IMG/VR virus record: IMGVR_UViG_2695420687_000010
Location: 1 to 7,836 of that record
Reading direction: 5' to 3' (one strand)
Length of the DNA stretch: 7,836 nucleotides
Source of the DNA: a virus
Lineage: Duplodnaviria > Heunggongvirae > Uroviricota > Caudoviricetes
Shown here: one piece after another, positions 6,876-7,836 of the stretch
How the letters are laid out: each line of letters opens with the position of its first letter
How positions within the stretch are numbered: the first letter of the stretch is position 1
Translations under genes and position numbers: made by a program
Notes under the pieces: model-generated
Databases searched by the model: none
What the model was told of the DNA's origin: nothing
The model's input: only the letters and a program-made list of their open reading frames with translations

Positions 6876-7064
6876 ACTTTCTACCGGACGCGCCCACAGG
6901 GCTTCATCCAGCCGGTAAGCCTGCTGTTCATCTTCACAGGCGATGAGTACGCGCTTACCGTTGCGCCAACGTTCTGCGGCAATTTCACACACCAGCTGCT
7001 CAACGGCGCTTAAGCCATCGACGGTGGTGTCATTGTCCAGAAGGTAGAACGTTGCGTTTTTCAT
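6876..7064 (-). CDS. holC: DNA polymerase III chi subunit, 5' fragment (first ~63 codons), fused in frame to the capsid ORF
   Basis: From ATG 7062-7064: MKNATFYLLDNDTTVDGLSAVEQLVCEIAAERWRNGKRVLIACEDEQQAYRLDEALWARPVES matches recalled E. coli HolC residues 1-63. The next codon contains N at 6875 (ntt, compatible with Phe64 of HolC); after it the sequence is capsid, not HolC. Confidence 0.85.
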
Positions 7065-7116
7065 ATATGAGGCTTCTTGTGGTGGATTTAAATACACATC
7101 AGGTAAACACCGTATT

Positions 7117-7153
7117 GCCCGATGCGACGCTATCGCGTCTTATCAGGCCTACG
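7117..7153. repeat. REP (repetitive extragenic palindromic) element
   Basis: gcccgatgcgacgctatcgcgtcttatcaggcctacg matches the E. coli REP consensus (GCCKGATGCGRCG...CGYCTTATCMGGCCTAC), in the holC-pepA intergenic region. Confidence 0.8.
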
Positions 7154-7167
7154 AGTTCAGTGCTGTG

Positions 7168-7203
7168 TAGGTCGGATAAGGCGTTTACGCCGCATCCGAC
7201 AAT
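7168..7203. repeat. REP element in inverted orientation (forms a BIME with the 7117-7153 copy)
   Basis: taggtcggataaggcgtttacgccgcatccgacaat is the reverse-complement form of the REP consensus, 14 nt from the first copy. Confidence 0.8.
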
Positions 7204-7220
7204 AACAATGCCTGATGCAA

Positions 7221-7331
7221 TTACTCTTCGCCGTTAAATCCGGCGCGGTTTAGCAGGAACTGTGCCAGCAACGCTACCGGACGACCGGTTGCGCCTTTTG
7301 CCTTGCCAGAACGCCAGGCGGTTCCGACGGT
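7221..7331 (-). CDS. pepA: Aminopeptidase A (leucyl aminopeptidase, M17 family), 3' fragment (last ~36 codons)
   Basis: C-terminal translation ..[34 protein letters not shown] matches the recalled E. coli PepA C-terminus. Stop TAA at 7221-7223. Native synteny (pepA upstream of holC with REP in between) is preserved for this block. Confidence 0.8.
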
Positions 7332-7478
7332 GTCCAGCGCTGCCATTTCAGCGTCACGCGTTACTTTCGCCAGAATAGACGCGGCGCTGATTTCCGGCAC
7401 GCGGCTATCGCCTTTAACTACTGCCATCGACGGCATAGGCAATTTCGGACAGCGATTCCCATCAATCAATACATATTC
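7332..7478 (-). CDS. rnhB: Ribonuclease HII, internal fragment (about 49 codons), fused in frame to the pepA 3' fragment
   Basis: [49 protein letters not shown] matches recalled E. coli RnhB (about residues 103-151), including the conserved RNase HII motif SIAAASI(L/I)AKVxRD. Flanking sequence on both sides is not RnhB. Boundaries are approximate (+/- 6 nt). Confidence 0.75.
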
Positions 7479-7769
7479 CTCCTTGGTGTAGGAATCTGGT
7501 GTCGGGCATTCACATTCAAGAGAAACCTTCGTGCCATTCGACCAGTTCATAACATCGGGCAAAACCGTATTCGCTACGTTCTTTTTTAGGCTGCGTCGTA
7601 AATGCGCGAAATGCTTCTGATTTTGCGTGTTGTTAGCATACAGGCGTAGTAGTAGCGCCAATGCGCTATCTTTCTCCAGTATGCTATCGCCTGCAATGTC
7701 TGGAGGTATTTCATCTGTGAATAAATCATCAAAATCCACCTCACACCTCCAGATGTGATAATTCGGCAC
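7479..7769 (-). CDS. Unidentified ORF fragment (about 86-96 codons) fused in frame to the rnhB fragment; hypothetical protein
   Basis: Minus-strand translation (V)[96 protein letters not shown] is not recognised from memory. Start candidates: GTG 7767-7769, or GTG 7737-7739 preceded by GGAGG at 6-nt spacing. In-frame TAA 18 nt upstream of 7769 bounds the ORF. Confidence 0.35.
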
Positions 7770-7836
7770 GTAATTCTCGTAGTCGTGTTATCGTTTCGTC
7801 ATAGTGCGCAATATTACTTTGCTTATCATTGTATTG

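Follow-up and report, generated by a model that had tools for sequence, protein, structure and literature searches.

The window, by which we mean the whole stretch of DNA that was analyzed (7,836 bp), is the entire contig CDRK01000176.1 of the Escherichia albertii draft assembly GCA_000936005.1, as established through an exact match of the protein of its truncated ManA open reading frame (ORF). This contig is a patchwork whose 7.8 kb contain at least seven joins. Eight origins were identified, comprising six chromosomal loci (narZ, manA-ydgA, dinF, holC-pepA, rnhB, and a fimbrial gene), a prophage, and a plasmid, and they are unlinked in all reference genomes, where the joined loci lie far apart or on different replicons. 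All pieces are truncated gene fragments, some of them only 52 to 153 nt long. Undetermined bases (Ns) occur in the window only at positions 143-145, 2123, 2146, and 6875. A literature search found no paper mentioning the accession or a matching E. albertii ENA project.

The contig starts with an internal fragment of narZ, encoding the nitrate reductase Z alpha subunit (1-142, plus strand; 94.4% identical to Escherichia coli narZ), which is separated by NNN at 143-145 (join J1) from manA. The plus-strand piece at 146-2145 consists of manA without its first 32 codons, the following spacer, and the 5' half of ydgA; over 2,000 nt it shares 99.7% identity with an E. albertii locus versus 86.5% with K-12, and the ManA fragment shows 99.7% protein identity to E. 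albertii ManA versus 94 to 95% for E. coli. At 2123, within the colinear ydgA sequence and 23 nt before join J2, an N stands in place of the native A. According to the parent alignments, the N at 2146 marks J2 itself, where ydgA meets dinF with the two genes on opposite strands. The dinF piece is an internal fragment of 52 nt (2147-2198, minus strand) with 88.5% identity to dinF in all 5,426 E. coli genomes. Join J2b (2198/2199) leads from there into a prophage block (2199-6874, minus strand); many E. coli genomes carry prophages that match it at 99.8 to 99.9% identity over exactly these coordinates. Pfam analysis assigned to the block the 5' part of a tape-measure gene, tail chaperones, major tail and head-tail genes, and a major capsid gene without its first codons. 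The capsid gene runs in frame into holC at join J3, where the N at 6875 follows three shared bases (CAA) and occupies the first discordant position.

The remaining pieces all lie on the minus strand. Positions 6876-7326 contain holC codons 1 to 63, the holC-pepA spacer with its REP elements, and 103 nt from the 3' end of pepA, and are colinear with E. coli holC-pepA at 92 to 93% identity. Join J4 (7326/7327) connects pepA in frame with an internal 153-nt fragment of rnhB (7327-7479), which in turn adjoins at J5 (7479/7480) an internal 107-nt fragment of an LpfD-like fimbrial gene (7480-7586). The fimbrial piece matches two E. albertii loci at 105 of 107 positions, encodes a protein stretch identical to an E. 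albertii fimbrial protein, and is in frame with both neighbors. Beyond J6 (7586/7587), a plasmid piece extends to the contig end (7587-7836). It comprises the beginning of one dynamin-family gene, whose native start codon is at 7739, together with the end of an upstream dynamin-family gene; both E. albertii plasmid CP030779.2 and E. coli plasmids match it at 100% identity. J2b, J5, and J6 are N-less joins that an earlier, sequence-only reading of this DNA had left unmentioned.

The core-gene pieces of the contig are only 86 to 94% identical to E. coli. Set against these values, the 99.9% identity of the prophage and the 100% identity of the plasmid genes indicate that E. coli and E. albertii share the mobile elements almost unchanged. 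Identities of 86 to 93% to E. coli point to another Escherichia species as the parent, and one E. albertii genome with its plasmid could account for all pieces.

The rnhB parent could be assigned exactly. Window positions 7327-7479 correspond to codons 113 to 163 of the 198-codon gene, and five E. albertii genomes, the complete chromosome CP030778.2 among them, have an rnhB that matches at 153 of 153 positions; in all five, the same 153 nt lie within an intact rnhB located between lpxB and dnaE. Beyond the 153 nt, E. albertii rnhB continues with GTATATCCGCAA (LDTVYPQ). An exact search with a 26-mer from the rnhB piece retrieved a metagenome contig with a 152/153 match to 7327-7479, and changing one residue of its RnhB from V to M, as in the window, yields the 198-amino-acid E. 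albertii RnhB. The intact 198-amino-acid protein with this exact fragment occurs on 49 contigs under the name E. albertii. By comparison, E. coli rnhB aligns to 7333-7479 at only 88%, and among the matches listed for GTDB representatives, with E. albertii absent from the list, the best were E. ruysiae and Escherichia sp. at ~90%. A search of a 5.8-billion-protein set with a 53-amino-acid RnhB fragment returned short partial proteins only, missing full-length RnhB as well as the contig's own protein; LDTVF was seen to occur natively.

Two of the rnhB records deserve comment in their own right. The GTDB representative CP169086.1 (Enterobacter hormaechei strain B17-3) encodes at 1501-2094 an RnhB that is 100% identical to that of E. 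coli K-12, and its DNA aligns to the window as K-12 does; the record may be mislabeled or contaminated. In Logan contig ERR9923189_38184 (808-1345), rnhB is divided into two ORFs of 65 and 92 amino acids, the second of which ends in LDTVFHSMVLH; judging from the ORFs, this would be a frameshifted gene or a sequencing error.

The other parent of J4 is the 3' end of pepA. Together with the holC-pepA spacer, the E. coli pepA end aligns to 6872-7337 at 92 to 93% identity, and the native pepA stop codon lies at 7221-7223. The pepA end in the window, CGGAACCGCCTGGCG, is identical to the pepA allele of 2 of the 10 reference loci, all 10 of which read CTGGATATCGCCGG(T/A)ACC at the corresponding place, and all 14 full-length PepA sequences examined contain HLDIAGTAW. 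The comparison of this parent was with E. coli alleles, and the assignment otherwise rests on the invariance of HLDIAGTAW: cluster listings of PepA, HolC, LptF/G, RraB, ValS, YjgN, YjgM, and YjgR contained no E. albertii member, and one RraB variant led only to E. coli loci. Within the holC-pepA spacer, 7100-7215 carries REP-like palindromic units in a copy number unlike that of the E. coli references, and BLAST yields two overlapping pieces in this interval.

Minus-strand translation of 7221-7769 and alignment with both parents placed the rnhB-to-pepA switch, which had been proposed to lie in frame inside 7320-7345, exactly at 7326/7327. Read along the plus strand, pepA sequence extends up to the G at 7326 and rnhB sequence starts with the A at 7327; the coding strand shows CTG GAC ACC GT/C GGA ACC GCC TGG, with rnhB before and pepA after the slash. 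E. albertii rnhB reads GCA GCG CTG GAC ACC GTA TAT CCG CAA on its coding strand and pepA of the 10 reference loci CAC CTG GAT ATC GCC GG(T/A) ACC GCC TGG, while the window has GCA GCG CTG GAC ACC GTC GGA ACC GCC TGG. Position 7327 (coding T) is specific to rnhB and 7326 (coding C) is specific to pepA, so the switch falls between these two bases, within a Val codon, and from 7326 downwards the window follows pepA. Since all 14 full-length PepA proteins examined read HLDIAGTAW, a pepA origin of 7327 would be very unlikely; if E. albertii pepA reads GATATCGCCGGAACC, 7327 cannot be pepA derived.

The transition thus takes place within one codon and is not spread over about three, as the sequence-only reading had it. 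That reading had also described the intervening T-V residues as matching neither parent. E. albertii RnhB natively contains LDTVYPQ, and rnhB supplies T and the first two of the three V-codon bases, pepA only the third. T-V is therefore native RnhB sequence, because the true rnhB parent is E. albertii and not E. coli; choosing the right parent species removes the apparently "novel" residues. Both gene assignments, to RNase HII and to the PepA C terminus, proved correct, as did the statement that no N marks this boundary.

An L-D-I tripeptide had been described for both parents at the join, and it is indeed present in each (LDIVFPQ in K-12 RnhB and HLDIAGTAW in PepA), so that J4 sits at local similarity. 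With the parents aligned in register, the 11 bases that adjoin the crossover on its rnhB side include 8 identities (CTGGAyAyCGy, encoding L-D-[I/T]-[A/V]), and the 42 bases within 21 nt on either side include 19. In 200,000 simulated in-frame joins, drawn between 26 Escherichia coding sequences, at least 8/11 identities occurred with a probability of 0.0048 and at least 19/42 with a probability of 0.0086. The similarity at J4 is above chance for a single join and marginal when seven joins are allowed for, which we regard as suggestive. The patch may have favored the join, or its position there may be a coincidence. All three mismatches in the patch are C/T transitions, and all three carry the rnhB base in the window, none having been converted to N.

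Exact sharing is another matter. The parent alignment shows 0 nt of exact microhomology at the J4 crossover, and the longest exact string common to both parents nearby is 5 nt (TCCAG, 7333-7337), lying 6 nt off the crossover. The sequence-only reading had suggested checking the assembly graph for a shared k-mer at the join; a de Bruijn-graph join needs about k-1 exact bases, and with a longest exact string of 5 nt, offset from the crossover, a shared k-mer does not explain J4. Its reading of a breakpoint between two unrelated genes at a short similarity, within a chimeric sequence, thus holds up in substance, but not in the idea of a shared k-mer or in the origin of T-V.

The seven joins fall into two classes. 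The N-marked joins (J1, J2, and J3) are found where two long pieces meet, and in each the Ns sit on the first in-register discordant base or bases, replacing native bases one for one: at J1, narZ TC-ACG-C and manA TC-CAA-C give TCNNNC, at J3, CAA-T and CAA-A give CAAN, and J2 shows the same pattern. The N-less joins (J2b, J4, J5, and J6) lie at the edges of the short pieces (52, 153, and 107 nt) and have 0 to 3 nt of exact overlap. Exact identity at the switch point amounts to CGC at J2b (2 to 3 nt shared), CAA at J3, and TC at J1; there is none at the J4 crossover, beside which 8 of 11 bases agree in register, and none in register at J5 or J6. In-register parent identity is 27% at J1, 29% at J2, 20% at J2b, 39% at J3, 45% at J4, 35% at J5, and 31% at J6, against a background of ~26%. 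A general placement of the joins at similarity was rejected, as only J4 and, weakly, J3 rise above this background. A reference-ordered concatenation of leftovers was likewise rejected; the order of the chromosomal pieces on the K-12 map is roughly ascending, but their orientations are inconsistent. Proximity-ligation or mate-pair junctions were rejected because the joins carry no restriction-site or linker remnants.

Six of the seven joins connect pieces on the same strand, and four consecutive ones, J3 to J6, do so in the native frame of both partners. As a result, the minus strand contains two in-frame chimeric ORFs, each with a native start and stop codon: one of 172 amino acids at 7221-7739 and one at 5694-7064 (HolC(1-63)-X-capsid). 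We estimate the probability that at least four of seven joins are same-strand and in frame by chance at ~0.02 (taking p = 1/6 per join). The run may be due to chance, or it may be a by-product of joins favoring codon-level similarity; the J5 partners share E..LI.G. To our knowledge, there is no assembly process that should care about reading frame.

J4 lies in a minus-strand ORF that spans 7221-7769, within which the gene call on the contig is the 172-amino-acid chimera. It combines 51 amino acids of a dynamin-family N terminus, 35 of the fimbrial protein, 51 of RnhB, and 34 of the PepA C terminus. The RNase_HII domain (PF01351) is represented only by profile positions 98 to 171 of 199, and the complete domain with the N-terminal DEVGRG metal-binding segment was not found; nor did the ORF give a Pfam match to the M17 peptidase domain of PepA (leucyl aminopeptidase), of which only the last 34 residues are present. 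With a partial RNase_HII domain and no M17 domain, the predicted product would be incapable of working as an enzyme.

The join itself is unique to this contig. A 33-mer across J4 had no match in 185,579 GTDB species representatives and none in IMG/VR, and coverage of 7100-7836 stayed below 80% in all 5,426 complete E. coli genomes. Among ~15 billion proteins, the 172-amino-acid protein forms a singleton cluster, and in a full protein search nothing but the chimera itself covered more than 59% of it. A native RnhB or PepA containing the combined sequence, which would have shown one of the two gene assignments to be wrong, was not found in these searches. Neither recurrence of the fusion nor homologs of the same architecture, as would be expected of a natural gene fusion, were detected in them. 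The parent genes are intact in relatives: rnhB in five E. albertii genomes, manA-ydgA in E. albertii, and holC-pepA in E. coli.

Seven joins between unlinked loci, truncated pieces, Ns at joins, a junction found once, and parent genes intact elsewhere together lead us to conclude with high confidence that the rnhB/pepA switch is an artificial join in a chimeric contig and not a gene fusion in the organism. The analysis shows the patchwork itself, the crossover position, both parents, and the uniqueness of the junction; the artificial status of J4 and the step at which it arose are inferred. Several observations speak against an artifact or its details. The joins J3 to J6 are in frame with native start and stop codons (chance, ~0.02), the similarity at J4 hints at a similarity-guided process that could in principle be recombination in a cell, and the lack of exact overlap at the N-less joins does not fit a de Bruijn k-mer join and is hard to reconcile with classical microhomology-mediated template switching. 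We do not think that the in-frame run rescues a biological reading.

For the artificial join, the two classes suggest different steps. The N-marked joins look as though a scaffolding or consensus step had butted or overlapped sequence ends, with a tiny forced overlap. The N-less joins must have existed in the sequence that the assembler received, and probably arose from chimeric molecules or reads formed in library preparation or amplification, or else in a permissive extension or gap-closing step. We give an origin in silico and an origin in the library roughly equal weight.

There is about an even chance that the join was a physical, in vitro chimera, in which fragments of the isolate's DNA were joined by end-to-end ligation of small fragments or by polymerase template switching in the library or during amplification and the duplicates were then assembled faithfully. 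The N-less joins border pieces of fragment size (52, 107, and 153 nt), which fits single reads or read pairs, and a graph assembler would presumably cross such joins only if reads contained them. As the parents differ in the J4 patch by C/T only, a nascent rnhB strand could have paired with pepA via wobble-type mismatches. Yet J4 has no exact microhomology at the crossover and its 3'-terminal base would be mismatched, random ligation predicts random strand and frame whereas six of seven joins are same-strand and four are in frame, and the joins show no trace of adapters or linkers.

A purely computational origin is also a serious possibility, which we place somewhat below even. Here a scaffolder, a gap closer, or an overlap-merging step would have joined short low-coverage contigs or read ends while tolerating mismatches within a very short overlap, and there would have been no physical junction molecule. 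The Ns stand exactly at the in-register conflicts of J1, J2, and J3, as a consensus over a tiny forced overlap gives, and the 8/11 in-register match of the parents at J4 is in keeping with such merging; the three mismatches in the J4 patch were, however, not turned into N, so that J4 would have been made by an operation other than that behind the N-marked joins. J5, J6, and J2b have overlaps of just 0 to 3 nt, and common assemblers need much longer exact overlaps. The chimeric protein is found only in the NCBI copy of the contig and in no Logan assembly of the collection, although this absence is weak evidence, as a partial ORF would escape an exact look-up.

It is very improbable that the contig represents a real mosaic locus of the E. 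albertii strain, built up in the cell through successive events of illegitimate or short-homology recombination that left in-frame fusion ORFs beside a prophage. The in-frame, same-strand chain from J3 to J6 with its native start and stop codons, the above-chance in-register similarity at J4, and the compatibility of all pieces with one E. albertii genome and plasmid would suit such a locus, but it requires seven independent joins of unlinked loci in 7.8 kb, with pieces down to 52 nt, carries Ns on three joins, encodes products without complete domains, and is absent from the five E. albertii rnhB loci, the 5,426 E. coli genomes, the GTDB representatives, and the 15-billion-protein collection. 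No bacterial mechanism that would build a patchwork of this kind is known to us. Least probable of all is a physical mosaic in which a prophage-adjacent locus of the strain gathers short fragments of chromosomal and plasmid genes by repeated short-homology-guided joining, preferentially in frame, and so generates new chimeric ORFs.

Under the artificial-join interpretation, no new gene or mechanism is indicated biologically. The practical consequence is a warning. Large protein collections already contain chimeric ORFs of this public contig, listed as a "unique" RNase_HII-domain protein, and pan-genome, gene-fusion, and novelty screens could take the chimera for real. N-less misjoins can hide beside N-marked ones.

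The contig can be compared with three known kinds of composite sequence. Like natural bacterial gene fusions and products of domain shuffling, it has an uninterrupted ORF, native at its start and its stop, in which parts of several genes are joined in frame; unlike them, it keeps no complete domain, the fusion is seen in no other genome, and the joined partners are housekeeping genes, intact in all relatives. Chimeras made by PCR or template switching resemble it in that J4 adjoins a short similarity of two unrelated templates and the pieces are fragment sized. Classical template-switch chimeras show perfect identity over a few bases where the switch occurs, whereas the similarity at J4 is imperfect (8/11) and the crossover base is discordant. 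Compared with the misjoins of short-read draft assemblies, the pieces are unusually many and short (52 to 153 nt), several joins are without N or exact overlap, and four in a row keep the frame. It nevertheless shares with these misjoins a small contig that unites unlinked chromosomal, prophage, and plasmid segments, Ns at some of the joins, junctions that occur in one assembly only, and parent genes that are intact in related genomes.
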